DNA of 64,000 nucleotides from Gammaproteobacteria bacterium. Lineage in GTDB: Bacteria > Pseudomonadota > Gammaproteobacteria > GCA-002705445 > GCA-002716945. The DNA lies in assembly GCA_965660795.1 (NCBI GenBank), contig CBFIBF010000001.1, positions 30,932-94,931 on the forward strand, written 5' to 3'. Below the pieces are notes generated by a model. It did not search any database, had not been told where the DNA came from, and was given only the letters and a program-made list of their open reading frames with translations. The translations under genes were made by a program, and so were the position numbers. This document shows, piece by piece, positions 10,793 through 63,698 of the stretch; position 1 is the first letter of the stretch; each line of letters begins with the position of its first letter.

Positions 10793-10800
10793 GAAAACAT

Positions 10801-11262: not shown

Positions 11263-11264
11263 TT

Positions 11265-12401: not shown

Positions 12402-12426
12402 TACATTTTAAAGATATACTTAAATT

Positions 12427-12931: not shown

Positions 12932-13809
12932 TTAGTCAAAAATTATATCTATAACATCATCTAGATATATATCTCTAAAAAAATGATCTGCCCCATCAAT
13001 AAGAATATGAGAAATATTTGATTGATTGATTTGGTTTAGTTTTTTATAAGAATCTAGAAGAATTTCATCATCAGTTCCTGAGAAAATAGTTACCGATGAA
13101 TTAGTATCTTTTAATAAGTCAATGATACTAAATGTAAACGGATACAATGTCTGGTTTTTGGATAAATCTAAATAAGATCTAAATGTTGATGAAGATACTT
13201 TAGCGTTTTCACAAAATAAAAAATTAATGGAAGGATACTTATCAGAAATAATAAATTCATCTTTATTATTTATCAATGTTTCATAAGGAAGTTTGTGTTC
13301 TTGGTTATAGTAGTTTTTTGTTCCTAAATAAGTATCTATAACTGGAGCTAATAGATACGCTTTGATGTTATTGTTATTTATAAGAGCCATTGCTTGAACT
13401 ACATTAAATGCTCCTCTGGAGTGTCCTATAAAATATATATTTTTATAGTTTTGATTTTCTAGATATTTATACCAGGATACTATTTCATTGATAGATCTAT
13501 GTTCGTTATGAGTATGTACCCTATCACATGAAAGAAATTCACTAGTTCTATTGTCTATATCATAGCTCAAGTTAATGCTTAGAGAACTGTGACCGCGATC
13601 CAATATTCTCTGACTTAATGATTTTATAATCTCCATGTCCTTATAGCCTCGTGTTCCATGAACAAGAATGAATATAGTATCGCTTTGTGGGCCACTGGTT
13701 AAGGTAGCATTTAAGGTTAGACCATTATCACTTTTAATATTAATTATCTGATCATCTGATACAGTGATATTTGGGAAGAAGCTAAGGAAGAATAAAGCAT
13801 AAAAGAATA
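12932..13809 (-). CDS. Secreted alpha/beta hydrolase (esterase/lipase-like); the start codon is uncertain.
   Basis: It has the HG oxyanion motif (ILVHGTRGY), a GHSRG nucleophile elbow and a C-terminal DGADHFF. The track ORF 12932..13906 reads through the tRNA. There is no ATG, GTG or TTG in frame between the tRNA and the HG motif (the first ATG is at 13636), so the start is non-canonical (ATA at 13809 or 13806) or the gene is 5'-truncated. Confidence 0.55.
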
Positions 13810-13811
13810 TT

Positions 13812-13884
13812 ATAGGGCGTACAGGATTCGAACCTGTGACAAATGGCTTAAAAGGCCACTGCTCTACCAACTGAGCTAACGCCC
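13812..13884 (-). tRNA. tRNA-Lys (anticodon UUU)
   Basis: Reverse complement of 13812..13884 is GGGGCGUUAGCUCAGUUGGUAGAGCAGUGGCCUUUUAAGCCAUUUGUCACAGGUUCGAAUCCUGUACGCCCUA. It folds as a cloverleaf with D and T arms (T loop UUCGAAU) and anticodon loop CUUUUAA, and closely matches E. coli tRNA-Lys. No CCA is encoded. Confidence 0.9.
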
Positions 13885-13892
13885 CGAATATA

Positions 13893-48430: not shown

Positions 48431-50135
48431 ATTCTATATTGCTATCAATTCTCATGATATGTTGCATGAATTCACCAAAAACTGGCGCAGCATGATAACC
48501 GCCTGAGCCTTGTCTATCTTTTGGTTCTCTTATAATTACAGCTGCAACATATTTAGGTATAGGATCTCCGACGATGCCAACAAATAATGCATTGTGATTA
48601 TTGGTATTATATTTTCCATTTTTTAGTAGTCTTACTGTACCTGTTTTACCATATGTCGTATATCCATTAACTTTAGCTTTTTTTCCTGTTCCATCATCTG
48701 AGTGAACTACTTGCTTCATCATATTAAGAACGATTGATGTTTTCTTGCTATCTAACAACTGATGATCCTTCTCAAAGTGTAATTCGTTACTATTGATATA
48801 CTTTAATTGAGTATAATGCCCCTCATTAGCCAATATTGTATACGCGTTCACTAAATGCATTAATGATACAGATATACCATACCCATAACCAATACTGTGA
48901 TGTTCTGATTCGGATATTTCATTAGTTGTTGGTAACTTTCCATTTCTAGATCCTGGAAGGTCTATATATAGTGAATGTCCAAATCCAAATTTCTCAAGAT
49001 TACTGATTAGTTGTTTCTTTGATAGCATTGTTGATACTCTAGCCGCACCAATGTTGCTCGAGTACTTAATGATATCACCTGATGAAACTTTCCCTAAAAA
49101 TTTCCAATCCTTAATTTCTTTATCATCAAGCTTTATGATTCCTGGGGCAGTATCAATGATCGTATCATGATTAATCAGACTATGATGAAGTCCAGCATAA
49201 ATTATAAAGGGTTTTATGGTTGATCCTGGCTCTATCAAATCATGAATAATTCTGTTCTTGATTTTTTCACCTGAATAACTTGTTCTTGTTTCTGGATCAA
49301 AAGAAGGATAATTTGCCATTGACAAAATATTACCAGTAGCTGTCTCAACAAGAACAATAGATGCGCTGTCTGCCTCAAACTTCTTTACATATTTCTTCAA
49401 AACATCATATGCAATAATTTGTATTTGCTTATCAAGCGTAAGTGTTACGTCTAATCCAGCCTTAGATTTCTTTATGATTTCTAGCGTTTCAATTGCTCGA
49501 CCGATATTATCTTTTTTTATTTTTTTAATTCCATCTGAAGGTTTTAAGACTTTGTTTTTGGCAAGCTCAATTCCTTCTTGTCCTACATCATCAACATTAG
49601 TAAATCCTAAAACATTAGAAAATGCTTCACCTCCTAAATAAGACCTTTTACTCTCATTGATGAAATAAATATAAGAATTTTTATATTTTTCAATCTTTGT
49701 AAACTCTAATTTTGAAATATGTCTTTTTAAATAATATTCCTTTTTATCTTTATTTCTATATATTGCTTTGCTGATTTTCTGGTAAGGAATATCAATAATT
49801 TCTGAAATTTTTTTTAAATCATCTTTATATTCTGATGTATAAAGCTTGCTTGGATTAATACATAAAGTTTTTGAGGGCAATGACATTGCTAATATATTTT
49901 TATTTCTATCAAATATAATTCCGCGCTGCTCTTTAGTTATTATATTTTGTATCTGTCTTTTTTTCCCCTCATTGATTATATTTTGCTTGCAGGTACTTTC
50001 ATTGAAATAAAAGCAATCCGTGCCTTTGATTTGGATGAAATATAATCTAATAATAATTATTAGAAGTGTAATGGAGGCTATTATTACGAATAATAATAGT
50101 CTCCATTTTTCATTTTTTACTTTACTATCAATCAG
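48414..50135 (-). CDS. ftsI: Peptidoglycan D,D-transpeptidase FtsI (PBP3). The true start is unresolved: the track ORF starts at the first ATG (49886), but the transmembrane N-terminus lies upstream.
   Basis: The 490-aa track ORF has PBP dimerisation and transpeptidase motifs (STIKP, SSN, KTGT). The same frame stays open upstream to 50144 and encodes ...KWRLLLFVIIASITLLIIIIRLYFIQIKGTD...QRGIIFDRNKNILAMSLP. That is the canonical FtsI cytoplasmic, transmembrane and pre-PBP segment, but it has no in-frame ATG, GTG or TTG. Candidate starts are CTG at 50135 or ATT at 50132. Alternatively ATG at 50113 is one base out of frame at an A-run. Confidence 0.75.
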   Translation of the reverse strand: MIDSKVKNEKWRLLLFVIIASITLLIIIIRLYFIQIKGTDCFYFNESTCKQNIINEGKKRQIQNIITKEQRGIIFDRNKNILAMSLPSKTLCINPSKLYTSEYKDDLKKISEIIDIPYQKISKAIYRNKDKKEYYLKRHISKLEFTKIEKYKNSYIYFINESKRSYLGGEAFSNVLGFTNVDDVGQEGIELAKNKVLKPSDGIKKIKKDNIGRAIETLEIIKKSKAGLDVTLTLDKQIQIIAYDVLKKYVKKFEADSASIVLVETATGNILSMANYPSFDPETRTSYSGEKIKNRIIHDLIEPGSTIKPFIIYAGLHHSLINHDTIIDTAPGIIKLDDKEIKDWKFLGKVSSGDIIKYSSNIGAARVSTMLSKKQLISNLEKFGFGHSLYIDLPGSRNGKLPTTNEISESEHHSIGYGYGISVSLMHLVNAYTILANEGHYTQLKYINSNELHFEKDHQLLDSKKTSIVLNMMKQVVHSDDGTGKKAKVNGYTTYGKTGTVRLLKNGKYNTNNHNALFVGIVGDPIPKYVAAVIIREPKDRQGSGGYHAAPVFGEFMQHIMRIDSNIEYAGSR

Positions 50136-51261
50136 CTTGTTGTCTTAGAAATGCTGGTATGTCTATTGAAGTTTGATCTTCTTGTCCAGATAGATCTACA
50201 TGCTCAATATTATTATTGGAGTTTTGAAAGCTTTTAACACTGTTCATGTTTTCTTTAGGTTGTTCTTCTAAAGAAGGTTCAGTAGTTACAACATCTGCTA
50301 CATTGTTTTGTACAAAACCTGTTGCAATTATAGTAACTCTCAAGTCTCCTATATTATCATCTTCTTTAATACAGCCGGTGATAATCTTTGCGTCTTCATG
50401 TGCAATTTCTCTGATTTTATTTCCAATAACTTCAAATTCATCTGTAGTCAAATCTGAACCAGATGTAATGTTAACAAGAACGCCGCTTGCGCCTTTAAGG
50501 CTTATATTATCAAGTAAAGGGCTGCTAAGTGCTGTAGTAACAGCTTCCTCAGCTCTATTTTCACCAGATGAAACACCAGAGCCCATCATTGCCTTGCCCA
50601 TTCCTGACATTACGGTTTTAACATCTGCAAAATCAACATTCATAAAACCTCTAATAGTTATAATTTCTGTTATCCCTTTGACAGCACCTCTTAGCACGTC
50701 ATTAGCGTTTTCAAATGATGAAAATATGGATTCTCCTCCGCCATATACCTCTTTAAGTTTTGAATTTGGTATTACAATGAGTGAATCCACCCATTGTTCT
50801 AGATTATCTATGCCTTCTTGTGCATTTGCCATTCTCTCTGGACCCTCAAAATCGAATGGTTTTGTCACTACAGCAACTGTCAGTATACCTAAATCCCTAG
50901 CAATCTGGGCAATAACTGGTGCTGCGCCTGTGCCTGTTCCACCACCCATACCAGCGGCTATGAAAAGCATATCTGCTCCTTCAATTGACTCTTTTAGAGT
51001 TTCGCTTGCTTCAAGTGCTGCTTGTCTGCCTTTTTCAGGATCTGCGCCAGCTCCTAATCCTTTAGTTATTTCAGAGCCTATCTGAACCGTGACTGCGCCG
51101 TCTATATCCCTTAGGGCTTGTACATCAGTATTTGCAATTAAAAAATCTGCCCCATGAATTTGAGACTTAAGCATCGACATAATAGCGTTACCACCGCCAC
51201 CGCCTACACCAATAACTTTGATAACCGCATTTTGATTATAATTATTTACTATTTCAAACAT
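50128..51261 (-). CDS. ftsZ: Cell division GTPase FtsZ
   Basis: 377 aa with the GGGTGTG tubulin signature and the conserved C-terminal peptide DIPAFLRQQAD. Confidence 0.97.
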   Translation of the reverse strand: MFEIVNNYNQNAVIKVIGVGGGGGNAIMSMLKSQIHGADFLIANTDVQALRDIDGAVTVQIGSEITKGLGAGADPEKGRQAALEASETLKESIEGADMLFIAAGMGGGTGTGAAPVIAQIARDLGILTVAVVTKPFDFEGPERMANAQEGIDNLEQWVDSLIVIPNSKLKEVYGGGESIFSSFENANDVLRGAVKGITEIITIRGFMNVDFADVKTVMSGMGKAMMGSGVSSGENRAEEAVTTALSSPLLDNISLKGASGVLVNITSGSDLTTDEFEVIGNKIREIAHEDAKIITGCIKEDDNIGDLRVTIIATGFVQNNVADVVTTEPSLEEQPKENMNSVKSFQNSNNNIEHVDLSGQEDQTSIDIPAFLRQQAD

Positions 51262-51270
51262 GGTGTCCTC

Positions 51271-51540
51271 CTATTGATCCATATTCATGATTAAAATTCT
51301 TTCTTTATTTGGCAGCTGCATATTAAGAGCCTTACCTAGACTATTTTTCTGTAAAACTTTATCTGTAATGTCAGCTTTATCTTTTAGCAACTGTCGATAT
51401 GATTCAGATAAATAATAATGTTTCTTTTCGTTTTCAGATATTTCAATGTTCAAGATTCTATTTTGATATTTTATAAAAATCACTCCAAAAGCTGAAATGG
51501 TTATAAGTAAAATTAAAACAAAAGAAGCTGTCAAATTCAT
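51271..51540 (-). CDS. ftsL: Cell division protein FtsL
   Basis: 89 aa with a single transmembrane helix plus coiled coil, sited between rsmH and the downstream division genes. Confidence 0.75.
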   Translation of the reverse strand: MNLTASFVLILLITISAFGVIFIKYQNRILNIEISENEKKHYYLSESYRQLLKDKADITDKVLQKNSLGKALNMQLPNKERILIMNMDQ

Positions 51541-52469
51541 ATTGATTTCTCCAATACATTTATTTTTGCTGATCTTGATCTTATATTTTCTATGACTTCA
51601 CTTTGAGATGGTTTAATTTTTTTTATTAAGTTAAATAACTTTTTAAGAAATTCATTTTTTATAGGTATTTTTCTAGGTGTAGATAAATTATGATCGGTCA
51701 ATATCATAAAATCTTTTATAACTCGTTCTTCTAGTGAATGATAAGTTATAAGAACTAATCTACCTTTAGGAGCTAGTATGCTGTATGATTTTTCTAAGAT
51801 ACTTTTGAGAACATCTAGTTCCTTATTGACAAAGATTCTCAAAGCTTGAAAAGATCTGGTTGCATTATGTTTATTCTTATCATTAACTAAAACAGATTTG
51901 TTGATTATATTCACTAGCTCGAGAGTACTATTAATTGGGCTCAATGCTCTATGTTTGATTATGTTTTTAGCAATTCTTTTTGAGAATTTTTCCTGCCCAT
52001 ATACTCTTAAGATGCTCTCAATATCTTTTTCTGGTAACTCATTTATATATTCTGAGGCTTTTTTGCCATAATTTTGATTGAATCTCATATCTAAAGGCGC
52101 ATCTTTATTGAAACTAAACCCTCTGTCTGCATCATCTAAGTGGACAGAAGAAACACCAAGATCGAACAAAATACCGTTAACTGATCCATATACATTCCAT
52201 GTCCTAGCATATTCATCAAGAGAAGAGAAACATCCATGTTTTAGGGTAAACCTATTCTCTTGCGCAAATTGTTTTTTATTATAATCAATAGCATCCTTGT
52301 CTTTATCAACCGCAAAAATCTTTGCGTCCTGATTAGTATTCTCTAATATTGAAATTGAGTGGCCGCCATATCCAAGAGTAGCATCTATATATACTCCACT
52401 CTTATCGGTTATCAGATGCTTAATTGCTTCATTCTTCATTACTGGTATATGGAACTGAGTATTATTCAT
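51537..52469 (-). CDS. rsmH: 16S rRNA (cytosine1402-N4)-methyltransferase RsmH (MraW)
   Basis: 310 aa with a SAM motif (YIDATLGYGGHS) and conserved RsmH regions. Confidence 0.93.
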   Translation of the reverse strand: MNNTQFHIPVMKNEAIKHLITDKSGVYIDATLGYGGHSISILENTNQDAKIFAVDKDKDAIDYNKKQFAQENRFTLKHGCFSSLDEYARTWNVYGSVNGILFDLGVSSVHLDDADRGFSFNKDAPLDMRFNQNYGKKASEYINELPEKDIESILRVYGQEKFSKRIAKNIIKHRALSPINSTLELVNIINKSVLVNDKNKHNATRSFQALRIFVNKELDVLKSILEKSYSILAPKGRLVLITYHSLEERVIKDFMILTDHNLSTPRKIPIKNEFLKKLFNLIKKIKPSQSEVIENIRSRSAKINVLEKSI

Positions 52470-52656
52470 TTTCTTTAAAGCTTCTTATATGTTCATATGC
52501 AGATTTGATTCTTATAAATATTTTGATAGATTGGGAATCGTTCTTATTTTTGTCTGGATGATATTTTGACGCTAGTCTTCTGTAAGCTGCTTTTATTACA
52601 GACATGTCATCACTAGCATTTACTCCCAATATTCTATAGTCGTTATTAGTTATCAT
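52462..52656 (-). CDS. Stand-alone J-domain protein (DnaJ-like, 64 aa)
   Basis: DYRILGVNASDDMSVIKAAYRRLASKYHPDKNKND...IKSAYEHI is a complete J domain with the HPD motif. Its start overlaps the mraZ stop (ATGA) and its stop overlaps the rsmH start by 8 nt. Confidence 0.65.
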   Translation of the reverse strand: MITNNDYRILGVNASDDMSVIKAAYRRLASKYHPDKNKNDSQSIKIFIRIKSAYEHIRSFKENE

Positions 52657-53144
52657 ATACTTATGTCATTTAAAGCTTCTACATCATCCGTAGAGGTTGC
52701 CTCTTCACGCCATTTCTCAACATTGCGATCCCAAGAATTCTGATCCCAAATTTCAAATTTTTCACCTTGACCAATCAATATGACTTTTTTTGATAATGAT
52801 GCGTATTGTCTTAGTGGTTTTGAGATTAGAATTCTACCACTTGAATCAACATCAACGTCTTCTGCATGGCCAATTAAGAGTCTTTGAATTCTTCTAGCAT
52901 TTCTATTAAAGCTCGGTAAGTTACTGATTTTATCCTGAATCTTAGACCAAATTGTTGTTGGATATAAAAGTAGACATTTATCCTCAGTATCAATAGTTAT
53001 CACCATTGAGCCTTTTAAAAGGTTTGTAATATGTTCTCGATAGGAAATAGGAATACCTAGCCTGCCTTTTGAATCAAGGCTAAGATTGTGAATACCTTTG
53101 AATAGATTCTCCATTTTTCTCCACAAAATAACAAATAATGCCAT
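52653..53144 (-). CDS. mraZ: Transcriptional regulator MraZ
   Basis: 163 aa with duplicated MraZ/SpoVT-AbrB-like halves (GIHNLSLDSKGRLGIP / HAEDVDVDSSGRILI). First gene of the dcw cluster. Confidence 0.93.
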   Translation of the reverse strand: MALFVILWRKMENLFKGIHNLSLDSKGRLGIPISYREHITNLLKGSMVITIDTEDKCLLLYPTTIWSKIQDKISNLPSFNRNARRIQRLLIGHAEDVDVDSSGRILISKPLRQYASLSKKVILIGQGEKFEIWDQNSWDRNVEKWREEATSTDDVEALNDISI

Positions 53145-53287
53145 TTATCAACACTATATGACTTATTTTTAACATATGCAAGTAGTAATAGAGATAAACT
53201 AATGAAAATGTAGATAAATGAAGATTAAAATAACTAAAATATTAATTTTTATATATATTTCAGTTACTTATCGTATAATATTAATTA

Positions 53288-53616
53288 GAGAGAGTTAATC
53301 TATAAGCCGGGTTCTGTCGTGTACAGCTATTTATCTTGAATTATTGTCACCAATAATCTCATTAGCAGCAACCATGTGATTATATTGGGATGAATCACAA
53401 ATTTGCCTTGCTCCAAGTGGGGTTTACTTATGCCTACTTTGTTACCTCAGTAGCGGTAGGCTCTTACCCTACCTTTTCACCCTTACCTTTAAACAGGCGG
53501 TTATTTTCTGCAGCACTTTCCAAAACTCACGTTTTCCAGGTGTTACCTGGCACTTTTTCCCTGGAGCCCGGACTTTCCTCTATGTAATACATAGCAGCTG
53601 TATGATTAACTCTCGT
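53288..53616 (-). ncRNA. rnpB: RNase P RNA (bacterial type A)
   Basis: On the minus strand: GAGGAAAGUCCGGGCUCCAGGGAAAAAGUGCCAGGUAACACCUGG (P4 and the universally conserved region), and near the 3' end CGACAGAACCCGGCUUAUAG matching E. coli M1 RNA. The 5' segment 53614..53604 (GAGAGUUAAUC) pairs with the 3' segment 53300..53290 to form P1. It is locally GC-richer than its surroundings. The ends are approximate (about 10 nt). Confidence 0.88.
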
Positions 53617-53649
53617 TTGTATTATAGAATTTATAAAAGACATATCAAT

Positions 53650-54456
53650 CTATTTTCTAGCAACCAAGTATGCTATCCATGCAGGGTCAGCATCACATTT
53701 TTTCATCTTATAGAATTTCTCAGTTTCCTCATCTTTTTCCTCATCCCAGCCTTGCATATATATATCTACAGACTTAAACCCCGCCTCTTTCAGGCATTCC
53801 TGAATTTCAGGTAATGTCCATAATCTCCAATCGTAAGTAAATGCTCTTTTTTTCTTTGTTTTATCAGGGAATTCAAAATGTATATAACATTTTATTTCAT
53901 GAGTAATTGGATTGAATGATGATTGATCCCATACATAAGTGAAATTTTTATGTTTTGTTCTTTCCTCTAAAAGCTGATGAGCCTCATATCCACCAAAAGC
54001 ATCCAACAAAAAAAGACCATTTCTTTTTAGTTGAGAACGTGCGTTTTGGAAATATTTAATTAATTTAACCCTATCTTTAAAAACAAAATAACTAAAATTA
54101 GCAGCTAGTACACAGTCGACTTTATCATCTTTGTATTTAGAGGAATCTCCATAACATATTTTTATTCTAGACTGTTGATTTTGATCAAGTCTTCTCAAAG
54201 CAGTTTTTTTCGCTTGGTTTATCATTTGTTTATCATAATCCACAGCTATAGATGTATGTTTATTATTATCCATAACCCACTCAGTAGATATTAAAGCTGA
54301 AGCAGAAAAATCTTCTCGTAAGCTTACACATTTAGATTTATTATATTTTTTATATAACTTTTTAATAAAACCCACCTCAAATTCTGGACATTGAACTGAT
54401 TCTTCATAAAGTTGATTGATGTCAGCTGTGCGAGCAGTTAATTTTTTTTTCACCAT
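53650..54456 (-). CDS. Putative SAM-dependent methyltransferase-like protein
   Basis: 268 aa with a degenerate motif I-like LREDFSASALISTE and an NFSY (NPPY-like) segment, followed by an acidic/basic C-terminal tail. Weak family assignment. Overlaps the dusA 3' end by 35 nt. Confidence 0.4.
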   Translation of the reverse strand: MVKKKLTARTADINQLYEESVQCPEFEVGFIKKLYKKYNKSKCVSLREDFSASALISTEWVMDNNKHTSIAVDYDKQMINQAKKTALRRLDQNQQSRIKICYGDSSKYKDDKVDCVLAANFSYFVFKDRVKLIKYFQNARSQLKRNGLFLLDAFGGYEAHQLLEERTKHKNFTYVWDQSSFNPITHEIKCYIHFEFPDKTKKKRAFTYDWRLWTLPEIQECLKEAGFKSVDIYMQGWDEEKDEETEKFYKMKKCDADPAWIAYLVARK

Positions 54457-55393
54457 GATTTTCCTCGTTATTAAAATAATTTACGTCTGTAATTGGTTTA
54501 TCTGAATTTATTAATGTATGCAAATATTTTCTCCACTTCTTAGATAAGCTCGTGCCTTTATACAAATTTGTAAGATGCTTCAATGCATAAAGCTTATTAC
54601 CTCTTTCTTCAAAATCAAGTTGATTAATATATTTTTCAATAATAGATGGGGTCGATAAATTATTATCAAAAGAAAAAATCCTTTTTTCTAATTCAAGTAA
54701 AAACCTTGGATCATCATATATTTTTCTGCCAATCATAATTCCACCATAAATATTTAAAAGATGTGTAGCTTCATCCAAATTATCTATTCCACCATTTATA
54801 TATATTTTTAAATGTGGGAATTTATTTTTTAGCTTGAGCACGTCATCATATCTAAGAGGTGGAACTGATCTATTTTTCTTTGTGGATAAACCATTTAATA
54901 CTGCATTTCGAGCATGAATATAAAATATCTCACATCCAGCATCACTAGTGACATGAATAAATTTTTCTATATTTTCTAAATTTTGCTCATAACCTAAGCC
55001 AAGTCTTGTCTTTATTGATACGGGAAGATTAGTACATGATAGAATGGACTTGACATAACTTGCGACATCATCGGGGTTATCAATTTGGCACGCACCAAAT
55101 CCACCTTTAATAACTTTTGAGCTAGGACAACCAATATTTAGATTAATCTCATCAAATCCCATCTTTGCTAAGATATCAGAAGCTTGCATAAATTTATTTT
55201 TATCATTACCTGCAACTTGAGCCACTATTGGATGCTGATTTGAAGGTATGGCATAATTTCTAAAATTTCCTCTTAAAAGAGAATCAACTGTAATCATTTC
55301 AGTAAACAGTGTTATGTTAGGTGACATCAACCTAATCAGTTTTCTGAAGTACTTGTCCGTCCTTCCCACCATAGGTGCTAAGAATAATTTCAT
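54422..55393 (-). CDS. dusA: tRNA-dihydrouridine synthase (DusA-like)
   Basis: 323 aa with a LAPMVGRTDKYFR N-terminus and a TIM-barrel Dus catalytic Cys (NIGCPS). Confidence 0.85.
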   Translation of the reverse strand: MKLFLAPMVGRTDKYFRKLIRLMSPNITLFTEMITVDSLLRGNFRNYAIPSNQHPIVAQVAGNDKNKFMQASDILAKMGFDEINLNIGCPSSKVIKGGFGACQIDNPDDVASYVKSILSCTNLPVSIKTRLGLGYEQNLENIEKFIHVTSDAGCEIFYIHARNAVLNGLSTKKNRSVPPLRYDDVLKLKNKFPHLKIYINGGIDNLDEATHLLNIYGGIMIGRKIYDDPRFLLELEKRIFSFDNNLSTPSIIEKYINQLDFEERGNKLYALKHLTNLYKGTSLSKKWRKYLHTLINSDKPITDVNYFNNEENHGEKKINCSHS

Positions 55394-55443
55394 AATATGC
55401 CTTATAGTTTATCTATTTTGATTTATCAGCTTATAATATTGTA

Positions 55444-56052
55444 ATGTCGACTAAATTACAAAAAGATGATATTTCTATTGCCATTTTAGCTGGCGGAAAA
55501 TCATCAAGAATGGGTGGTAATAATAAAGGTCTCATGAAGCTAAATAATAAGCTTGTTTTGTCAAGGCTAATATCTATTGCATGTAATTACTCATCTGATG
55601 TTTTTGTTATTGCAAATGATCTACTAGATGAATATAGAAAAATTCATCAAAACGTTTATTCAGATATTCTTGAAGATTATCAAGGGCCATTATCTGGTAT
55701 ATACTCTGCGCTTTCGTATTGTAAAAATCAATATTTAATCACCTTGCCATGTGATGGACCATTCCTCTCTAAAGAATATTTTGAAACTTTGACTGAATTT
55801 AATAATGAAAAAAAGATCTTTGTAACAAAGACAGGTGATAGGCTTCAGCCTGTGCATGCAAGAATTGATACATCGCTAAAAAATAATTTAAAACTCTTCT
55901 TACAATCTGGAGAGAGAAAAATAGATAAGTGGTATACTTCATGCGGATATGAAGTGGTTTTATTTGATGAAAGTGATGAAATGTTTATAAATCTAAATAC
56001 AAAAATAGATATTGAAGAAAATATTGAATTAATTAAAAAACTATATGGATAA
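55444..56052 (+). CDS. MobA-like nucleotidyltransferase (molybdenum cofactor guanylyltransferase family)
   Basis: 202 aa with AILAGGKSSRMGGNNKGL and PCDGPFL, matching MobA motifs. First gene of the C1-cofactor cluster. Confidence 0.7.
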   Translation: MSTKLQKDDISIAILAGGKSSRMGGNNKGLMKLNNKLVLSRLISIACNYSSDVFVIANDLLDEYRKIHQNVYSDILEDYQGPLSGIYSALSYCKNQYLITLPCDGPFLSKEYFETLTEFNNEKKIFVTKTGDRLQPVHARIDTSLKNNLKLFLQSGERKIDKWYTSCGYEVVLFDESDEMFINLNTKIDIEENIELIKKLYG

Positions 56053-56575
56053 ACATAGAATAGCATGGTGTATTACTGGTTCGGGTCATTACCTAAAAGA
56101 ATCAATTGATCTTATGCTTACATTAAATCATGTAGATTTATATTTGAGTAAAGCAGGTGAAGAGGTACTCAAATGGTATGACTATGATCTTGATATTTTC
56201 AAGAAAAAGAAGATTAAAATATTCAAAGATATAACTGCCAGCTCGGCACCAGTTAGTTTATTATATGAGTCTGTTTATAAACTAGTTGTTATCTCGCCTG
56301 CTACCTCAAATACAATAGCTTTCATGGCACAGGGTATGTCTAATAACCTTGTGACAAATATGTTTGCACAAGCTGGTAAATGTGGAATTAAAACACTAGT
56401 TTTTGCATGCGATACTGAACCAGTTGTAATTACACAGGCACCTAAAAAATTAGTTACTTTATACCCAAGAGAAATAGATTTAAAAAATTTTAGAGCTTTG
56501 AAAAAATTTAAAAATGTATCCGTTGTTGATAACGTAGCATCTTTGAAAAAAGCTTTAAGTAAATTAATTAAATGA
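56045..56575 (+). CDS. Flavoprotein-family protein (CoaC/EpiD/AfpA fold); candidate dihydromethanopterin reductase (DmrX/AfpA-like)
   Basis: 176 aa with AWCITGSG and ISPATSNTIA, the two signature motifs of the FMN-binding flavoprotein family. Overlaps its neighbours (8-nt and 4-nt overlaps). Confidence 0.55.
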   Translation: MDKHRIAWCITGSGHYLKESIDLMLTLNHVDLYLSKAGEEVLKWYDYDLDIFKKKKIKIFKDITASSAPVSLLYESVYKLVVISPATSNTIAFMAQGMSNNLVTNMFAQAGKCGIKTLVFACDTEPVVITQAPKKLVTLYPREIDLKNFRALKKFKNVSVVDNVASLKKALSKLIK

Positions 56576-57954
56576 AAAATATTTTATTCATTACAGGTAA
56601 GTTGGCTGAAAAAGGCCTTAAGACAGTCCTTGATGGTATTGAAGAAAAAAAATTTAATTACAAAATAAAAAATCTTAATGTGAATGTAGCGGCTCTTTTA
56701 ACAACAGACATGATTGAGAGACGTATTGGTGATGTTAGTCAGTTTGATGAGATTATAATTCCTGGAAGAGTGCGTGGGGATATAGAACGTCTTGAAAAGA
56801 TTGTTAAAAAGAAGGTAACCAGAGGTCCTGATGAATTAAAAGACTTACCAATAATGTTCGGAGCAAAAGCTGTCAAATATGATCTTTCAAAATTTGAAAC
56901 AGCAATATTTGGGGAAATTACAGATGCATTAAATATGACTATTGAAGCTGTAATAGAAAGAGCAGAATATTTTAGATCAGAAGGAGCTGACGTAATAGAC
57001 ATTGGTTGTTTGCCAAATAAAGAATTCCCTCATCTTGAAGAATTAGTCCAGGAACTGAAAAATAGAAATTTCTATGTCAGTATTGATTCTCATAATACAG
57101 ATGAATTGATTCGTGGTTCTAAAGCTGGTGCAGATTATCTCTTAAGTATTAAAAGTGAGACATATCACATACTTGAAAACCTTGACTCATATCCTGTTCT
57201 TATCCCATCAGATAATAATTTACCTGAATTTTATAACCTAATTGATAGAGCTATAAAGGATAATTTAACTTTTATAGCGGATCCAATTCTGGACCCTGTT
57301 TCATATGGGTTTACTAAAAGTTTAATGAGGTATGTAAATTTGAGAGAAAAATATCCTGACATTCACATAATGATTGGTATAGGAAATATCACTGAACTTA
57401 CTCATGCTGATACTACGGGAATAAATATGATAATGCTAGGTATCGTAGAAGAACTCAAATTAAACCACATATTAACAACCCAGGTCAGTAGACATTGTTC
57501 GACGGTCATAAGAGAAACTGACCTTGCAAGGAGAATAATTCATGCGGCTTCTGAAAATAATATTACACCAAAGCATATAAATGATGGATTAATGGCAAAT
57601 CATGATCATAAAGATTATCCTTTATGCTCAGATGAACTAAGTGAAATGCAAACAAAAATCAAAGACAAGAACTATCGTATTTATGTCAATGATGATGGGA
57701 TACATTTATTTAATAAAAATATATACAAAGTTTTTAGTGACCCTTTTAAGTTTTATGAGTATCTTGATTTGAATGATGATACAGGGCATGCATTTTATCT
57801 TGGTGTTGAATTAGCAAGGGCACAAATCGCATTTCAATTAAAGAAGAATTATCATCAAGATGAGGAACTTACTTGGGGGTGTTTAGTTGATAAAGAAATT
57901 GATGATATGATAAGTGAAAAGAAATTAGGTCCGACATTCAAAAAAATAAAATGA
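56572..57954 (+). CDS. Dihydropteroate-synthase-like pterin-binding protein (H4MPT-pathway type) with a C-terminal extension
   Basis: 460 aa carrying Pterin_bind-like motifs (GADVIDIGCLPN, SIDSHNTDELIRGSKAGADYL, MIGIGNITELTHADTTGIN), followed by about 170 residues of unassigned sequence. Confidence 0.6.
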   Translation: MKNILFITGKLAEKGLKTVLDGIEEKKFNYKIKNLNVNVAALLTTDMIERRIGDVSQFDEIIIPGRVRGDIERLEKIVKKKVTRGPDELKDLPIMFGAKAVKYDLSKFETAIFGEITDALNMTIEAVIERAEYFRSEGADVIDIGCLPNKEFPHLEELVQELKNRNFYVSIDSHNTDELIRGSKAGADYLLSIKSETYHILENLDSYPVLIPSDNNLPEFYNLIDRAIKDNLTFIADPILDPVSYGFTKSLMRYVNLREKYPDIHIMIGIGNITELTHADTTGINMIMLGIVEELKLNHILTTQVSRHCSTVIRETDLARRIIHAASENNITPKHINDGLMANHDHKDYPLCSDELSEMQTKIKDKNYRIYVNDDGIHLFNKNIYKVFSDPFKFYEYLDLNDDTGHAFYLGVELARAQIAFQLKKNYHQDEELTWGCLVDKEIDDMISEKKLGPTFKKIK

Positions 57955-58523
57955 TTCATGAAGTAATTGTAACTACCTTTAATAAAAAGAAAGAGGTTCA
58001 CATAGCGCCAATGGGTGTAAAGTTTGTTGATTTTGATAACAAGCAATGTGTTCAAATTTCTCCATTCAAACCGTCTCATACATTAAATAATCTTATTGAT
58101 ACAAAAGTGGCTACAATTAATTATGTTGATAACGTGAAAGTGTTTGCTGGCATTGTCACAGAGGAAAAAAAGTCATGGGATTTAGATCAGGTTTCAGATA
58201 GTTGTGTGCCGCATTTGGATATTACAAATACATATATGAACGTTAGTGTTTGTCAGGAAAATGATGATGATGTAAGGCCAAATATTATATGTAATATAGA
58301 AAATACTAAAATACTAAGGCCTTTTATGGGCTTTAATAGAGCTCAGTTTTCTGTGATTGAACTAGCAGTGCTTTCTACACGATTAGGAAGAATAGAGGAT
58401 GATAAAGTAAAAAGAGAGTATGAGTATCTAAAAATAGGGATAGATAAGACTGCAGGTGAAGACGAAAGAGCAGCATGGAAATGGATAGAAAACAAAATTA
58501 TGAAATATTTTAATAATGATTAA
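57951..58523 (+). CDS. DUF447-like (flavin-reductase-like split-barrel) H4MPT-pathway-associated protein
   Basis: 190 aa with N-terminal EVIVTT...HIAPMGV, typical of the FMN-binding split-barrel / DUF447 family found in H4MPT gene clusters. Confidence 0.45.
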   Translation: MIHEVIVTTFNKKKEVHIAPMGVKFVDFDNKQCVQISPFKPSHTLNNLIDTKVATINYVDNVKVFAGIVTEEKKSWDLDQVSDSCVPHLDITNTYMNVSVCQENDDDVRPNIICNIENTKILRPFMGFNRAQFSVIELAVLSTRLGRIEDDKVKREYEYLKIGIDKTAGEDERAAWKWIENKIMKYFNND

Positions 58524-59220
58524 GATTCTTGGTAGTATCAAAGATGTTAGCGAGGCGAAGGTTATCTCGAAATACGATTTTGATATTATTGATATAAAAA
58601 ATGTCATGGATGGTGCACTTGGATATGTGGGAGATGACGTTGTAAGCAACATCTCTAAAATGTTTAAAAATAAAACTTTAAGTGTTACTGCAGGAAATGA
58701 TTTACATCCAAACTCACAAAAGCAGATATCCAGATTGATGTTGATGAATAAGCTTGGGGTTAAATATATTAAAATAGGAGTTTATGGTGTGGATAACATC
58801 AATGAACATAAAGAATTTTTAAAATCAGTTTCAGGATTATCAATCAAAGTTGTGGGTGTTATGTTTGCGGAGTATATTACAAATGAAAGTCAGATAGATT
58901 CATTTTGTGAATTAAATTATCACGGACTGATGATTGATACTGAGAACAAAAATGCTGGGTCTTCCATAGATATTCTTCCAGATCATCTTATTGAGTATTT
59001 CACTGAAAAATGTAGGCAACATAATAAGCTGTGTGGAATTTCAGGTTCCTTGTCATCAAAAAATTTAGAAAAGGTTTTTTCTTTTAGTCCTAATTTTATT
59101 GGATTAAGAGGTGCTATTTGTTCTCAATCTAAAAGAGAAACAATAGATTCTCTAAACTGTGAGAAAGTTTTAGAATATATTAAGAGAGTTAATCAGAAAA
59201 TGCATCTAAAAGTGGTTTAA
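58516..59220 (+). CDS. MfnB-like (5-formylfuran-3-yl)methyl phosphate synthase (DUF556 family)
   Basis: 234 aa with N-terminus MIKILGSIKDVSEAKVISKYDFDIIDIKNVMDGALGYV, similar to MfnB (MxLLVSP..EA..A...GADIIDVKNP.EGSLGA). Confidence 0.55.
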   Translation: MIKILGSIKDVSEAKVISKYDFDIIDIKNVMDGALGYVGDDVVSNISKMFKNKTLSVTAGNDLHPNSQKQISRLMLMNKLGVKYIKIGVYGVDNINEHKEFLKSVSGLSIKVVGVMFAEYITNESQIDSFCELNYHGLMIDTENKNAGSSIDILPDHLIEYFTEKCRQHNKLCGISGSLSSKNLEKVFSFSPNFIGLRGAICSQSKRETIDSLNCEKVLEYIKRVNQKMHLKVV

Positions 59221-60547
59221 CTTTAGAAATTGTCTCATTATACTCACTGCGAATGTCAGAATCATAGACAATTCCTCCTCCGCCCCAGAAATATAAATTA
59301 TTATCAATAGATAACATAGATCTGATTGATATATTTAAATCAGTTTTTTCATCAAAACTAATATAACCTATAGATCCACAGTATATCGATCTTTCATCAG
59401 GCTCAAGTTCCTCAATAATTTCCATCGCACGAAGTTTCGGAGCACCTGTAATTGAACCTCCTGGGAAAGCATCTCTTATCAGATTATAAATATTTGAACT
59501 TTCATCAATTTCTCCACTTATTGTACTCACAAGATGATGGACGTTAGCAAATGTTTCAATTTCAAATAATTTATCAACTTTTACACTACCCTTTTTACAG
59601 TTAATGCTCAAATCATTCCTAAGTAAATCCACAATCATCAAGTTTTCAGCCATATCTTTTTCAGATGATTTAAGATCATCGATGTTATTTTTGTTAATGA
59701 TTGGATTATCAGATATTGGTCTTGTTCCTTTAATGGGTTTAGTCTCAATGATATTATTTTTTATTGATAAAAATCTCTCTGGAGAGAATGATAAAATTTT
59801 CCCGTTATGCGAGTTAAAATAAACTGAATAGGGGGATGAAAAGGTTTTATTAAGCTGTTGATAAAGATTATATTCATCTCCCTCATATGCGAGTGAAAAT
59901 CTTTGAGCTAAATTAACCTGATAACAATCCCCTGCTTTAATATATTCTAGTATTTTCATGAGCTTCATCTCATATAAAGCATAATTCATATTTGATTCAC
60001 AGCTTGAAGTTATTTTAAAGGAATCTTTACTGTTTAATTTTTTATTTTCTGGAGAGTAATTGCTTATGCTTTTAATTAATGTATTAATTTCATAATAAAC
60101 GATAAAAGCTTTTTTTTTATGATAATCATAAATTACTGCCCAATCATAAATCCCGAAAGCAAAAGTAGGAAAGTTCAAGCTTTTATGTAAGCTTTTAATT
60201 TGATGTAGTTTTTTTCCATAATCATATGCAATATGTCCAATAGCACCTCCACAAAATGGAATATCATCAGCAGACTCACATTTATAATTACTCATTATCT
60301 CTCTAAGTAAATCAAATGGACATGTATCAATCTCCTTTGTAAAATTTTCATCCTCTATTAATAAAACAGAATCGTCTTTGAAAATAATTTTTTTTATGGG
60401 ATTCGATGTAATTATATCAAATCTTTGATCAGGATATTTTTCATAATTACTGTTCAAGAAAACAGCCCAGTCATTCTCTTTTATAAACTCAAAAATTTTA
60501 TGAGATGGTATATTAAAATCAAGTTCAATAAATTTATAATTCATCAC
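59189..60547 (-). CDS. Chorismate-utilising enzyme, aminodeoxychorismate synthase component I-like (PabB-like)
   Basis: 452 aa with C-terminal chorismate-binding motifs (FPGGSITGAPKLRAMEIIEELE, RSIYCGSIGY, GGGGIVYDSDIRSEYNET). Confidence 0.7.
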   Translation of the reverse strand: MMNYKFIELDFNIPSHKIFEFIKENDWAVFLNSNYEKYPDQRFDIITSNPIKKIIFKDDSVLLIEDENFTKEIDTCPFDLLREIMSNYKCESADDIPFCGGAIGHIAYDYGKKLHQIKSLHKSLNFPTFAFGIYDWAVIYDYHKKKAFIVYYEINTLIKSISNYSPENKKLNSKDSFKITSSCESNMNYALYEMKLMKILEYIKAGDCYQVNLAQRFSLAYEGDEYNLYQQLNKTFSSPYSVYFNSHNGKILSFSPERFLSIKNNIIETKPIKGTRPISDNPIINKNNIDDLKSSEKDMAENLMIVDLLRNDLSINCKKGSVKVDKLFEIETFANVHHLVSTISGEIDESSNIYNLIRDAFPGGSITGAPKLRAMEIIEELEPDERSIYCGSIGYISFDEKTDLNISIRSMLSIDNNLYFWGGGGIVYDSDIRSEYNETISKVKPLLDAFSD

Positions 60548-61583
60548 TTATCCTATTCAAAACAAAAGCAGGAAAAAGGTGTGACAGTGATTCTCCGCCA
60601 TTAATAGAAGTCTTTAGAATATGGTTAATATTCTTAAATTTATATCCGTTAGCAGTGCAGATATCTGAAATAATATTTACTCCTAATCCCAAACCAATTA
60701 CCTTAAAACTAGAATCTAAAAAATATTTATCAACTAAATATGATAAGTTTTTATTAATATTCTGCATTTGTCTGTAATGTAATTTATTGCACAAATAGTT
60801 CAAAAGTTTCTTTTTACTTTTATCATAGTCAAAACCAAATGATCTTGATACTCTTTTATATGAATTTATTACAGAATAATTTAAGCCATCTGCAGATTTA
60901 GAATAAATATCCTTATGGCATAATTTTTTTAATATAATATTTACGTCCGCCATTGTTGAAAAATTTTCTGGAATTATACTATACTCTCTATTTTTATAAT
61001 TAATATTATTCATGAGAGAGAATAATGGAGTCCTTGAACATCCAGTATATAAGAGTTCTCTATTTTGAATGCCACTGAGATCAGATGATCTTTGATTTAA
61101 AATCTTTCCATCCTTCAATAGGATAAAGTCACATGTAGTAGACCCTAAATCTATAGCAATTGCATTATCATAATAGTTAGATAAATAAAGGGCCGATGCA
61201 AACCAGTTATAAGATCCTATATAATCAGTATTAAATAGATTAGATTTTTTAATATCTATGAATCCATCTTTTGTGAACACGCTAGAGGTAATTTTTGTTT
61301 TTTTGATTTTATCTATTATATATTTAACACCCTTTTTTCTACTTTCAAAACAATCGCACATCTCAGCAGACATAGTAAAATAATTTTTGATTTGAGAATT
61401 TTTATTACTAAATTGATTTGTAACTCTGGTTATGATTTCATCTAGAGCATCATGTTCGCTCCAAAAGTCAAAATCAATAATGTCATACCAAATAATATTA
61501 TTTGATTCTGGTTCAGCACAGTATTTAATATGTGCGCCGCCAATATCCCATCCTATTTTTGTTATATAAGGTTTAATTGACAT
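60534..61583 (-). CDS. Hydantoinase/oxoprolinase-like H4MPT-linked C1-pathway protein (MfnF-type)
   Basis: 349 aa with an N-terminal GWDIGGAHIK actin-like-fold ATPase motif (the hydantoinase_A N-terminus) and a second ASKHG-like motif (AIDLGSTTCD). Confidence 0.5.
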   Translation of the reverse strand: MSIKPYITKIGWDIGGAHIKYCAEPESNNIIWYDIIDFDFWSEHDALDEIITRVTNQFSNKNSQIKNYFTMSAEMCDCFESRKKGVKYIIDKIKKTKITSSVFTKDGFIDIKKSNLFNTDYIGSYNWFASALYLSNYYDNAIAIDLGSTTCDFILLKDGKILNQRSSDLSGIQNRELLYTGCSRTPLFSLMNNINYKNREYSIIPENFSTMADVNIILKKLCHKDIYSKSADGLNYSVINSYKRVSRSFGFDYDKSKKKLLNYLCNKLHYRQMQNINKNLSYLVDKYFLDSSFKVIGLGLGVNIISDICTANGYKFKNINHILKTSINGGESLSHLFPAFVLNRISDEL

Positions 61584-62476
61584 GTTCTACCTGCTATATC
61601 ACATATGGTATCTTCAATATAATCAAGACAACTAGTATTCTTACACTTCTGTAACATTGACATGGATGTTGTATATCTTGGATTTACTTCGATAAGAAAA
61701 AACTCTCCCTTGTATTCAATAAAGTCTATACCCACAAAACCTCTAAGATTAGGAAGGATTGATATGACGTCATCAATAAATTTAAATATTAAATTTTTAT
61801 CAGTTGGATATAAATTGACTAGTATGGATTTAACTTGAATTCTATCCTTAGACACAGTCATATTATGTTTATTAATTGATAAAACTCTATAATTATTCTC
61901 AGATACATGAAGATTTACACTATGTGAATTTCCTGGAATATACTTTTCAGTAATTTTATTTAAATCTTCATATTTACCTTTTTTTACAAAATAAGTATCA
62001 GAACAACCACATCCGAATCTATCTTTTGTAATTAATAAAGTATTCTTTACATCTGAGTCATAAGTATCAGGATTAAGTATATTATTTTCAGTACAAATTT
62101 TCTTTAGCCTGATCTTATCAGTAGCAATTAATATCGTTCTTAAATCTGATAAATACAAGTTTTCTATATTGGGCGATAGCTTTTTTATATAATTATATGA
62201 TATGAAATCATTCTCAGGACATATGGGTATAAAATAATCATATTGGTTTATGAATTCTGCGTCATATATGAGTTGCAAATTATTTTGATTAACAATAATA
62301 GCTTCTTTTCTGTTGGCATATTTATGTCGGTAATCACAAAAGAAGCTTATTTGATATTTAGTTGTGTCAATAAGAGACCTTAGAATTATATTTGCTTCTG
62401 TGAGAAGATGATGGTCAAGTTTATTTTCAATCAACCCGCCGCCTGTAATATACTCAAATATAAGAATTCTTTTCAT
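61562..62476 (-). CDS. ATP-grasp ligase (MptN/MfnD-type)
   Basis: 304 aa with an ATP-grasp C-terminal motif (FFLIEVNPRYTTSM) and the small size typical of RimK-like cofactor ligases. Confidence 0.55.
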   Translation of the reverse strand: MKRILIFEYITGGGLIENKLDHHLLTEANIILRSLIDTTKYQISFFCDYRHKYANRKEAIIVNQNNLQLIYDAEFINQYDYFIPICPENDFISYNYIKKLSPNIENLYLSDLRTILIATDKIRLKKICTENNILNPDTYDSDVKNTLLITKDRFGCGCSDTYFVKKGKYEDLNKITEKYIPGNSHSVNLHVSENNYRVLSINKHNMTVSKDRIQVKSILVNLYPTDKNLIFKFIDDVISILPNLRGFVGIDFIEYKGEFFLIEVNPRYTTSMSMLQKCKNTSCLDYIEDTICDIAGRTCQLNLI

Positions 62477-62477
62477 T

Positions 62478-63155
62478 ATGAATATTATACCTGCAATTGA
62501 TATAAAAGGCGGAATGGTTGTAAGAGCTATGGGAGGGAATCGAAAATATTATCAACCGGTTCACATCAGCTTAAATCAATCATCAGACCCTATTGTTTTT
62601 ACAAGAAAGATTATTCAATTGTATCATCCGTCAGTAATATATCTTGCTGATCTAGATTCGCTAAATAATGATGGAGATAATACAAATATCATTATTGAAC
62701 TATGTAATTTATTCAAAAATATAATATTTTGGGTAGATGTAGGAAACAGGAAAATAAGTTCATTAGAAAAAAATAATATAATTCATATAATGTGCAGCGA
62801 ATGCTTAAAAAAAATAAAAAATTTTAATTATATTTATAAAAATCATATTTACTCATATGACTATAAGGACGGTATAATTGGCTTTAAATATTTTCAAAAG
62901 CTTGATTCTAAATATAAAAATAAAATTATATTAATGAATATGTCAGATATAGGTACCAGCAAAGGTCCAGATTACAAGCACATAAAAAGAACCCGTAGAA
63001 GCTCAAAAAAAGAATATTATGTTGCTGGAGGAATTAGCTCGGTTTTTGATATTATCAGGCTGCGCAATATGAAAGTTAATGGAGTGATTGTTTCATCTAT
63101 TCTATTTAATACAAAAACCAATAAATACTTAATAAAGAAAAGAGCCAGTAGTTAA
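62478..63155 (+). CDS. HisA/HisF-family (beta/alpha)8 barrel protein (HisA-like, H4MPT-cluster type)
   Basis: 225 aa with N-terminus MNIIPAIDIKGGMVVR (HisA-like phosphate-binding start) and a C-terminal AGGISS glycine-rich phosphate-binding motif. Confidence 0.55.
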   Translation: MNIIPAIDIKGGMVVRAMGGNRKYYQPVHISLNQSSDPIVFTRKIIQLYHPSVIYLADLDSLNNDGDNTNIIIELCNLFKNIIFWVDVGNRKISSLEKNNIIHIMCSECLKKIKNFNYIYKNHIYSYDYKDGIIGFKYFQKLDSKYKNKIILMNMSDIGTSKGPDYKHIKRTRRSSKKEYYVAGGISSVFDIIRLRNMKVNGVIVSSILFNTKTNKYLIKKRASS

Positions 63156-63185: not shown

Positions 63186-63698
63186 TTATTTTTCGAACGG
63201 ATGCTCTGTAGCTTTCTTAGCAACTACGTCTTGAGCTTTTGGCTCACCGCTAACAGCATTTTTAATAGCCATTTTTGTTGCTTCAAAATTATAATCATAG
63301 ATACGTTTGTTATCATCAGCGTCCCAATGAATAAACACACCTACACAGATGAAAATATCATCAGCCTCATCAGCTGGAATTGTTCCATCTTCTACACATT
63401 CAGTAACAGCTCTTGCAACTGCTGCTTGCGCTGGACCAAACATTTGAACTGCTTGCTTAGCGCCTTTGATTGTAACTTTGTTGAACATAGCTGTGCTAGG
63501 TTTACATGGTAAGTTAGGTGAAACTACAGCTAATAAAGATGTAAAACCATCTTTGTTATTACATAATGTGTTACAAAATGCATCTTCAACTGCAGAACCA
63601 CGTGGTCCCATTAATAAGTCGATATGTGAAATTTCGTTATCCCCACCTTCGGTTACAACAAGTGCTTCACCAACTAATACTTTGTCGACTACTGCCAT
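63186..63698 (-). CDS. fae: Formaldehyde-activating enzyme (5,6,7,8-tetrahydromethanopterin hydro-lyase)
   Basis: 170 aa that aligns along its whole length with methylotroph Fae from memory: VGEALV...[11 protein letters not shown]...AFCN...[23 protein letters not shown]....[14 protein letters not shown]...[10 protein letters not shown]....VGVFIHW.A.D...I..YN.EATK..I..AV.GEPKA. Confidence 0.88.

Follow-up and report, generated by a model that had tools for sequence, protein, structure and literature searches.

A molybdenum cofactor guanylyltransferase gene beside a DmrB-type dihydromethanopterin reductase gene in a marine gammaproteobacterial clade

Results and discussion

The mobA-dmrB gene pair

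We analysed a 64,000-nucleotide stretch of contig CBFIBF010000001.1 (assembly GCA_965660795.1, hereafter the window) from an uncultured gammaproteobacterium, in which two overlapping forward-strand open reading frames (ORFs), encoding a MobA-like nucleotidyltransferase and a flavoprotein, lead into genes for the biosynthesis of tetrahydromethanopterin (H4MPT) and methylofuran. A preliminary description, made from the sequence letters and a list of ORFs, had taken the two as the head of a cofactor cluster. It had proposed that the flavoprotein is a dihydromethanopterin reductase, and that the MobA-like protein either supplies molybdopterin guanine dinucleotide (MGD) to an enzyme such as formylmethanofuran dehydrogenase or acts on a cofactor side chain in the manner of CofC. 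The first proposal agrees with what is reported below. As to the second, the upstream gene is probably an ordinary mobA that came to lie beside a bacterial dmrB in the ancestor of one clade, with its client enzyme encoded elsewhere in the genome.

Both ORFs, their 8-nucleotide overlap (ATGGATAA) and the two sequence motifs of the flavoprotein were recovered at the positions first described. In the junction DNA (CTATATGGATAAACAT) the ATG of dmrB at position 56045 lies 5 nucleotides 5' of the TAA of mobA (56050-56052). This ATG is the first start codon downstream of an in-frame stop in the dmrB frame, and the overlap is real because the next in-frame methionine, residue 24, comes after the conserved AWCITGSG motif. 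The motifs in the translated flavoprotein are RIAWCITGSGHYL (AWCITGSG) and VVISPATSNTIAFMA (ISPATSNTIA). Pfam places the protein in PF02441 (E = 1.9e-19) and the mobA product in PF12804, the MobA-like nucleoside triphosphate transferases (E = 2.8e-27).

The overlap is the first in a chain of 8, 4, 4 and 8 nucleotides that links mobA, dmrB, a dihydropteroate-synthase-like (DHPS-like) gene, a DUF447 gene and an mfnB-like gene. Such overlaps are the norm here: with starts set by the longest ORF, 31 of the 51 adjacent same-strand pairs in the window overlap, among them the unrelated pairs GNAT/UDG and QueE/RuvC, and about 93% of the window, which has a GC content of about 31%, is coding. The overlap of mobA with dmrB for this reason says little about shared function; it supports co-transcription or coupling, not a common role. 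A scan for consensus promoters and terminators from 55200 to 59400 (30% GC) was uninformative, with 17 promoter-like sites against 25.6 expected in shuffled sequences.

A DmrB-type flavoprotein

The closest solved relative of the flavoprotein is DmrB of Burkholderia xenovorans (3WIS/4MWG, deposited as 'putative dihydromethanopterin reductase (AfpA)'), to which residues 5-173 align with 51% identity over 169 positions (E = 8.2e-48). The next matches in the PDB are a probable aromatic acid decarboxylase (E = 3.5e-3) and the flavin prenyltransferase UbiX (E = 6.3e-3). Two NCBIfam models, archaeal AfpA (TIGR02699; 91.7 bits, cut-off 192.45) and DmrX/MJ0208 (TIGR02700; 90.3 bits, cut-off 251.35), match with E-values of about 1e-26, the latter match ending at position 142 of the 234-position model and leaving its C-terminal part unmatched. 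Below both curated cut-offs, the protein is by these scores a homologue of the archaeal AfpA and DmrX equivalogs but not a member of either. From the alignments we assign it as an orthologue of B. xenovorans DmrB, in the bacterial branch of the AfpA/DmrB/DmrX lineage. An alignment of 15 family sequences shows no variation at W8, T11, G12, P85 or N89.

The genes around dmrB point the same way. Scanning a single genome for each species confirmed 574 relatives, and the best 80 of these were used as loci. The DHPS-like gene, which carries DUF6513, lies directly 3' of dmrB in all 75 loci that reach past dmrB, and a DUF447 gene follows it in 66 of the 66 that reach far enough; an mfnB-like gene comes next in most. 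The family is small: when 1.84 billion cluster representatives were searched exhaustively, only 374 relatives came out at E <= 1e-3. Among the proteins found in the representative search is a natural fusion of 429 residues (P0135), in which a HisA/HisF-related domain, 26% identical to the product of 62478-63155 in the window (E = 5e-13), is joined to a DmrB-like domain that is 42% identical to the flavoprotein (E = 2e-37). This fusion provides independent support for a common pathway of the HisA/HisF-like protein of H4MPT gene islands and the reductase. Flavoproteins identical to that of the window are encoded on 1.04-1.2 Mb contigs assembled from reef and ocean metagenomes, as in GCA_038143675.1.

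It is hardly credible that the flavoprotein is another PF02441 enzyme, whether CoaC/Dfp, UbiX/Pad1 or an AfpA-type electron carrier. DmrB activity is a prediction, and the protein does fall under the curated cut-offs of the AfpA and DmrX models; however, the E-value for the DmrB structures is lower than for those of UbiX type by over 40 orders of magnitude, and H4MPT genes surround dmrB in every locus with readable downstream DNA. The CoaBC and CoaC models give merely 21-23 bits (CoaBC 23), and on these bit scores and the PDB E-values we rejected both a CoaC/Dfp and a UbiX identity.

Since the protein belongs to the AfpA/DmrB/DmrX lineage and not to CoaC/Dfp, the organism most likely uses a flavin-type dihydromethanopterin reductase, as the preliminary description had supposed; both the orthology to DmrB and the H4MPT genes of the readable loci favour this. 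By the same orthology DmrB, a flavin mononucleotide (FMN) protein, would reduce 7,8-dihydromethanopterin (H2MPT) to H4MPT in the last step to the one-carbon (C1) carrier. The AfpA group of beta-proteobacteria restored C1 growth to a dmrA knockout of Methylorubrum extorquens and was renamed DmrB, and the DmrB crystal structure implicates FMN in hydride transfer to H2MPT (PMC6193120). A flavin-type reductase in this organism is thus no new idea, bacterial DmrB having already been described in beta-proteobacteria (PMC6193120).

A canonical MobA

The mobA product passes the MobA equivalog model TIGR02665 by a narrow margin (155.9 bits, cut-off 151.85), over model positions 1-185 of 186. It aligns with Escherichia coli MobA (1FR9) without gaps, residues 11-189 on E. 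coli residues 8-186 (E = 4.5e-23). An AlphaFold model of the protein (pLDDT 89.4, pTM 0.88) was compared with the PDB by fold, and MobA structures of E. coli, Aquifex and Archaeoglobus fill the first nine places (TM-scores of about 0.81-0.87; for the best match E = 4.9e-17 and TM 0.81/0.86), followed by IspD, GlmU and similar enzymes. CofC/FbiD is missing from the 50 best fold matches of the model, and no CofC model was among the 15 NCBIfam families matched or the Pfam hits at E <= 1e-3.

We take the functional residues of E. coli MobA to be L12, G14, G15, R19, K25, D71, G78-P79-L80, G82, D101, R155/R156, N180 and N182. The pattern LAGG..R..K, D71, GPL.G and D101 would form the GTP/Mg site, while R155/R156, N180 and N182 presumably bind molybdopterin. 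In an alignment of the window protein with 12 others of the clade, which reach down to 39% identity to it (tblastn), all of these residues except R156 are identical in 13 of 13 sequences. R156 is replaced by lysine in all 13, and the adjacent R155 is invariant. The second glycine pair of the motif LAGGxxxRMGG is variable: in the window protein this pair falls at residues 24-25 (G21/G22 in E. coli), and across the clade G21 is replaced by D, K, E or N and G22 by Y in two sequences, giving the forms RMDG, RMKG, RMEG and RMNY (loci L002-L030). Taken together, the sequence comparisons and the fold model indicate that the upstream gene encodes a canonical MobA under purifying selection. Such an enzyme would attach GMP from GTP to molybdenum- or tungsten-molybdopterin to form the (bis-)MGD cofactor.

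A CofC-like identity was considered and rejected on the family scans, the residue mapping and the fold search. The structure prediction and active-site comparison that had been suggested as a means of choosing between MobA and CofC both come out as MobA, and the suggestion of a CofC-like enzyme falls with them. It is likewise highly improbable that a MobA was recruited within the clade as a CofC-like guanylyltransferase of an H4MPT or methylofuran side-chain intermediate. The position of mobA, first in and overlapping a cofactor-biosynthesis operon, the variation at G21/G22 and the lack of any molybdenum enzyme in the roughly 74 kb examined would all fit such a recruitment, but the protein passes the MobA cut-off and matches CofC/FbiD neither by sequence nor by fold, the presumed molybdopterin-binding residues R155, N180 and N182 are invariant (with lysine throughout at the adjacent R156), and the other H4MPT-using lineages sampled have no mobA in the cluster. 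The biosynthesis of H4MPT or methanofuran is not known to involve a nucleotide-activated intermediate.

Distribution of the mobA-dmrB adjacency

We searched all ORFs of 84 dmrB loci with tblastn and with a hidden Markov model (HMM) built from the MobA sequences of the clade. In all 19 loci of an uncultured, low-GC marine gammaproteobacterial clade (DmrB identity 70-100%) mobA lies directly 5' of dmrB. The same order is present in three deeper members of the clade, reached through MobA homologues of 44-46% identity. In the 65 loci outside the clade the HMM detected no MobA-like ORF up to 10 kb from dmrB; among these loci are Methyloversatilis, Methylophilaceae, Ferrovum, Variovorax, Ancylobacter, Arenicellales and Methylobacter. 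The gene 5' of dmrB varies in these taxa; judged by eye from N-terminal sequences, it may be a large regulator-like ORF, an adenylosuccinate-synthetase-like gene or a small kinase-like gene.

The deep clade members also keep the surrounding order, with ftsI, ftsZ, ftsL, rsmH, a DnaJ-like ORF, mraZ, a methyltransferase gene and dus followed by the divergent mobA and dmrB. Because plainly unrelated neighbours are equally syntenic in the clade, the adjacency of mobA and dmrB can be explained by descent. Two MobA homologues from outside the clade have readable surroundings. One (P0383) lies between genes for phosphoenolpyruvate (PEP) carboxylase and an EamA transporter. The other (P0381) stands with an ABC transporter that has a TupA/ModA-like binding protein, MobB, a MoeB-like protein and an aldehyde:ferredoxin oxidoreductase (AOR).

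Membership of MobA in the H4MPT gene cluster is therefore not supported, the adjacency being limited to one clade. The preliminary description had a flavoprotein of AfpA type and a MobA at the head of a cofactor unit. The part concerning the flavoprotein stands, in that dmrB opens a unit with the DHPS-like, DUF447 and usually mfnB-like genes. MobA drops out of the unit, being absent near dmrB from 65 of 65 loci outside the clade. By position, mobA goes with other molybdenum genes rather than with this cluster in P0381, one of the two homologues with readable surroundings, where it stands with a molybdenum/tungsten transporter, MobB, MoeB and AOR. Tracking of other molybdenum enzymes instead of this cluster is what the earlier description had named as speaking against its proposal.

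The downstream H4MPT and methylofuran genes

The features of the locus are listed in Table 1. Beyond the right end of the window, the corresponding locus of a near-identical genome (L087) continues with genes for a CitG-like protein, MptN, Mch, an ATP-grasp protein, MtdB, RFAP synthase, FhcB, FhcA, FhcD and FhcC. From the window genes and this continuation, the organism carries a complete H4MPT/methylofuran module for formaldehyde oxidation (fae, mtdB, mch and fhcBADC). The index of the assembly collection lists its Fae protein sequence alone in 1932 blocks.

Table 1. Features at and around the mobA-dmrB locus (window positions unless locus L087 is named).
Feature	Position	Strand	Basis or remark
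dus-like gene	54422-55393	-	Divergent from mobA
AT-rich spacer of 50 nucleotides between dus-like gene and mobA	55394-55443		Presumed promoter region of the forward-strand unit
mobA, molybdenum cofactor guanylyltransferase, 202 aa	55444-56052	+	TIGR02665 equivalog, 1FR9, AlphaFold model, conserved residues
dmrB, predicted FMN-dependent dihydromethanopterin reductase of the bacterial AfpA/DmrB type, 176 aa	56045-56575	+	3WIS/4MWG, PF02441, gene context
Dihydropteroate-synthase-like, DUF6513 and pterin-binding domain, H4MPT biosynthesis	56572-57954	+	PF20123, PF00809, TIGR00284; 4-nucleotide overlap with dmrB
DUF447 protein of H4MPT-linked gene islands	57951-58523	+	PF04289, PF20766, conserved order; 4-nucleotide overlap with DHPS-like gene
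MfnB-like (5-formylfuran-3-yl)methyl phosphate synthase, methanofuran/methylofuran branch	58516-59220	+	PF04476 (E = 1.1e-39), NF002576; 8-nucleotide overlap with DUF447 gene
pabB, aminodeoxychorismate synthase component I, p-aminobenzoate (pABA) for the H4MPT arylamine moiety	59189-60547	-	TIGR00553, 344.8 bits (cut-off 328.4)
H4MPT-linked C1 pathway protein, MfnF-like	60534-61583	-	TIGR03123 (E = 1.8e-60), NF040623; both under cut-off
ATP-grasp ligase, MfnD-like	61562-62476	-	PF02655; NF040722 (E = 7.6e-19), under cut-off
HisA/HisF-related protein of H4MPT gene islands	62478-63155	+	TIGR00734 (E = 1.2e-28)
fae, formaldehyde-activating enzyme	63186-63698	-	TIGR03126, 235.6 bits (cut-off 118)
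FhcB-like subunit, 415 aa, near full FwdB length	L087 3056-4303 (roughly 6.5-8 kb past the right end of the window)	-	Homologous to FwdB 5T5I (E = 3e-14)

The Fhc complex and the client of MobA

The fhc genes next door bear on the proposal that MobA provides MGD to formylmethanofuran dehydrogenase. Cys118 and His119 of FwdB (SVCHGP), the cysteine being the tungsten ligand, align to K and F (SDKFLK) in the FhcB-like protein of the clade, with no cysteine nearby, and the protein scores 160.8 bits against the cut-off of 327.8 for TIGR03129. It retains an N-terminal CxxCxxxC iron-sulphur motif, which FhcB of M. extorquens lacks. The same motif is present in FhcB of Ancylobacter, Variovorax and marine Betaproteobacteria, in all of which MobA linkage is absent. 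No FwdD-like gene was called between the RFAP synthase and FhcC genes of L087. Fhc has no tungstopterin; it works by hydrolysis and releases formate, which is then oxidised by separate formate dehydrogenases (PMC6926001).

The supply of MGD by MobA to formylmethanofuran dehydrogenase is thus not supported, because the FhcB-like protein is without the Cys/His ligands and Fhc has no tungstopterin. An MGD requirement of the adjacent Fhc/Fwd-like complex was rejected on the K/F substitution, the retained cysteine motif being common elsewhere. We accordingly hold it to be very improbable that a redox-active formylmethanofuran dehydrogenase is encoded by the neighbouring fhc/fwd-like genes and receives MGD from MobA: the near full FwdB length of the subunit and its cysteine motif would suit such an enzyme, but the altered residues 118 and 119, the low TIGR03129 score, the lack of a called FwdD-like gene and the presence of the motif in the FhcB of ordinary methylotrophs that have no linked mobA all speak against it.

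Formate dehydrogenase is the obvious candidate for the client of MobA because the adjacent pathway ends in formate. In our analysis the MGD client would be an unlinked enzyme of the dimethyl sulphoxide reductase family, most likely a formate dehydrogenase that oxidises the formate released by Fhc. We found nothing specific in the literature on formate dehydrogenase in the clade.

Interpretation

We consider it probable that the window holds an ordinary MobA beside a bacterial DmrB, and that the pairing reflects shared descent. DmrB would be made together with the biosynthetic enzymes of the pterin and furan branches. mobA would have been placed before dmrB in the ancestor of one genome-streamlined clade of marine gammaproteobacteria, and is probably co-transcribed with dmrB through the loss of intergenic DNA rather than through any action on methanopterin.

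Several observations weigh against this interpretation. When 30 further ORFs of the window were scanned with Pfam for molybdenum enzymes, the genes recognised were housekeeping genes, sox-like genes and those of an RND efflux pump, and no MGD-dependent enzyme, moa or moe gene, or molybdenum/tungsten transporter was present in the scanned ORFs of the window or in the 10 kb past its right end. The second glycine pair of the MobA motif varies in the clade. The assignment of DmrB draws on similarity to the Burkholderia enzyme and on the neighbouring genes, no equivalog model having been passed. Finally, mobA is intact and abuts dmrB across the deep clade, with spacings of -11 to +16 nucleotides even where MobA is only about 40% identical; such a pattern would also arise if co-expression with the C1 module were under selection.

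The last of these points favours an alternative in which the chemistry of MobA is unchanged and the gene has stayed in the C1 operon because MGD supply, and with it the maturation of a molybdenum/tungsten formate dehydrogenase, is thereby regulated together with H4MPT and methylofuran synthesis. The adjacency and its tight spacing hold throughout the clade despite the strong divergence of MobA. The product of the pathway is formate, which separate formate dehydrogenases oxidise, and with the full Fae/MtdB/Mch/Fhc set next door such an enzyme would complete a module from formaldehyde to CO2. However, the arrangement has not recurred independently, none of the 65 other DmrB loci having MobA within 10 kb. 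The dus, methyltransferase and mraZ genes are equally fixed in position, overlaps are the genomic norm, and a formate dehydrogenase in the clade genomes is an assumption. We regard such functional linkage as unlikely.

A non-canonical role for MobA in the C1 module, either in guanylylating an H4MPT or methylofuran intermediate or in supplying a pterin dinucleotide that the FwdB-like FhcB, with its N-terminal iron-sulphur motif still in place, would have kept, seems very unlikely. If it were true, a MobA-family enzyme would be a new component of bacterial methanopterin-linked metabolism.

An abundant, uncultured and genome-streamlined clade of marine gammaproteobacteria is seen to have the full H4MPT/methylofuran module for formaldehyde oxidation. 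The reductase of this module appears to be the flavin-type DmrB and not DmrA, which should be useful in annotating marine C1 metabolism. What is new is the lineage, the DmrB class of enzymes being already known. The adjacency of mobA shows in addition that a common function is only weakly indicated by tight gene overlaps when genomes are compact. Should a formate dehydrogenase be confirmed in genomes of the clade, the operon would link the cofactor supply of the last oxidation step to the supply of the C1 carrier, a modest regulatory curiosity.

Other features of the window and its relatives

The order of the dcw cluster (48414-53144, reverse strand) is unusual. Here ftsZ (50128-51261) lies between ftsL (51271-51540) and a PBP3/ftsI-like gene (48414-49886), and not in the distal position after ftsA; mraZ and rsmH are separated by an ORF of 64 residues with a DnaJ domain (52462-52656). 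Deep members of the clade (L088, L090 and L091) share these two features. A bacterial class A RNase P RNA (53287-53613, reverse strand; 264.7 bits) is located between mraZ and the methyltransferase gene, and two forward-strand ORFs that overlap or flank it (53390-53587 and 53602-53814) are probably spurious.

The region 10457-12927 (forward strand) contains a gene for a SoxA/TsdA-type cytochrome c (11574-12401) flanked by three small ORFs, which by position only are candidates for soxY, soxZ and soxX. A YeeE/YedE-type sulphur transporter (13893-15092, reverse strand) is encoded near these sox-like genes. The host is probably a marine gammaproteobacterium that oxidises sulphur. A TTG-start ORF of 324 residues (12932-13906, reverse strand) without a Pfam match overlaps at its 5' end a tRNA gene (13813-13885, reverse strand), and is probably mis-started or spurious.

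In four loci on pilon-polished long-read contigs (L001, L004, L005 and L086) many genes of the cluster are fragmented; L005, for instance, has a split mobA and L001 a split DHPS-like gene. The breaks look like indel errors of assembly and not pseudogenes, because the genes are intact in near-identical genomes.

Comparison with known systems

The flavoprotein resembles DmrB of B. xenovorans in its length class, its PF02441 fold and both FMN-type motifs (AW.ITGSG and PATSNT). The dmrB genes of beta-proteobacterial methylotrophs have the same neighbours as the gene described here, namely those for DHPS-like, DUF447 and MfnB-like proteins. The host differs from B. xenovorans in being an uncultured, low-GC marine gammaproteobacterium, in which dmrB is preceded and overlapped by mobA. 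The cage-like oligomer and the activity of DmrB belong to the Burkholderia-type protein, whereas the flavoprotein of the window is known from its sequence.

Archaeal AfpA/DmrX, regarded as the evolutionary source of DmrB (PMC6193120), shares a homologous flavoprotein domain with the window protein. However, the latter is far below the cut-offs of the archaeal families and has no match to the C-terminal part of DmrX. DmrA of M. extorquens carries out the reaction predicted for the window protein, the last step of H4MPT synthesis. It is dihydrofolate-reductase-like, with a fold unrelated to that of DmrB, and is NADPH-dependent without a flavin (PMC6193120).

The MobA of the window aligns with E. 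coli MobA (1E5K and 1FR9) without gaps over residues 8-186, and in the fold alignment the identity is about 29%. Unlike the E. coli gene, it has no adjoining mobB and heads an H4MPT cofactor operon, not a mob or molybdoenzyme operon, and its relatives vary at G21/G22. With CofC/FbiD, the 2-phospho-L-lactate or PEP guanylyltransferase of F420 synthesis, it has in common the nucleotidyltransferase fold class and the setting of a guanylyltransferase in a cofactor pathway. In contrast to CofC/FbiD, it carries the C-terminal FxNxN motif of MobA, which we take to be part of the molybdopterin-binding surface.

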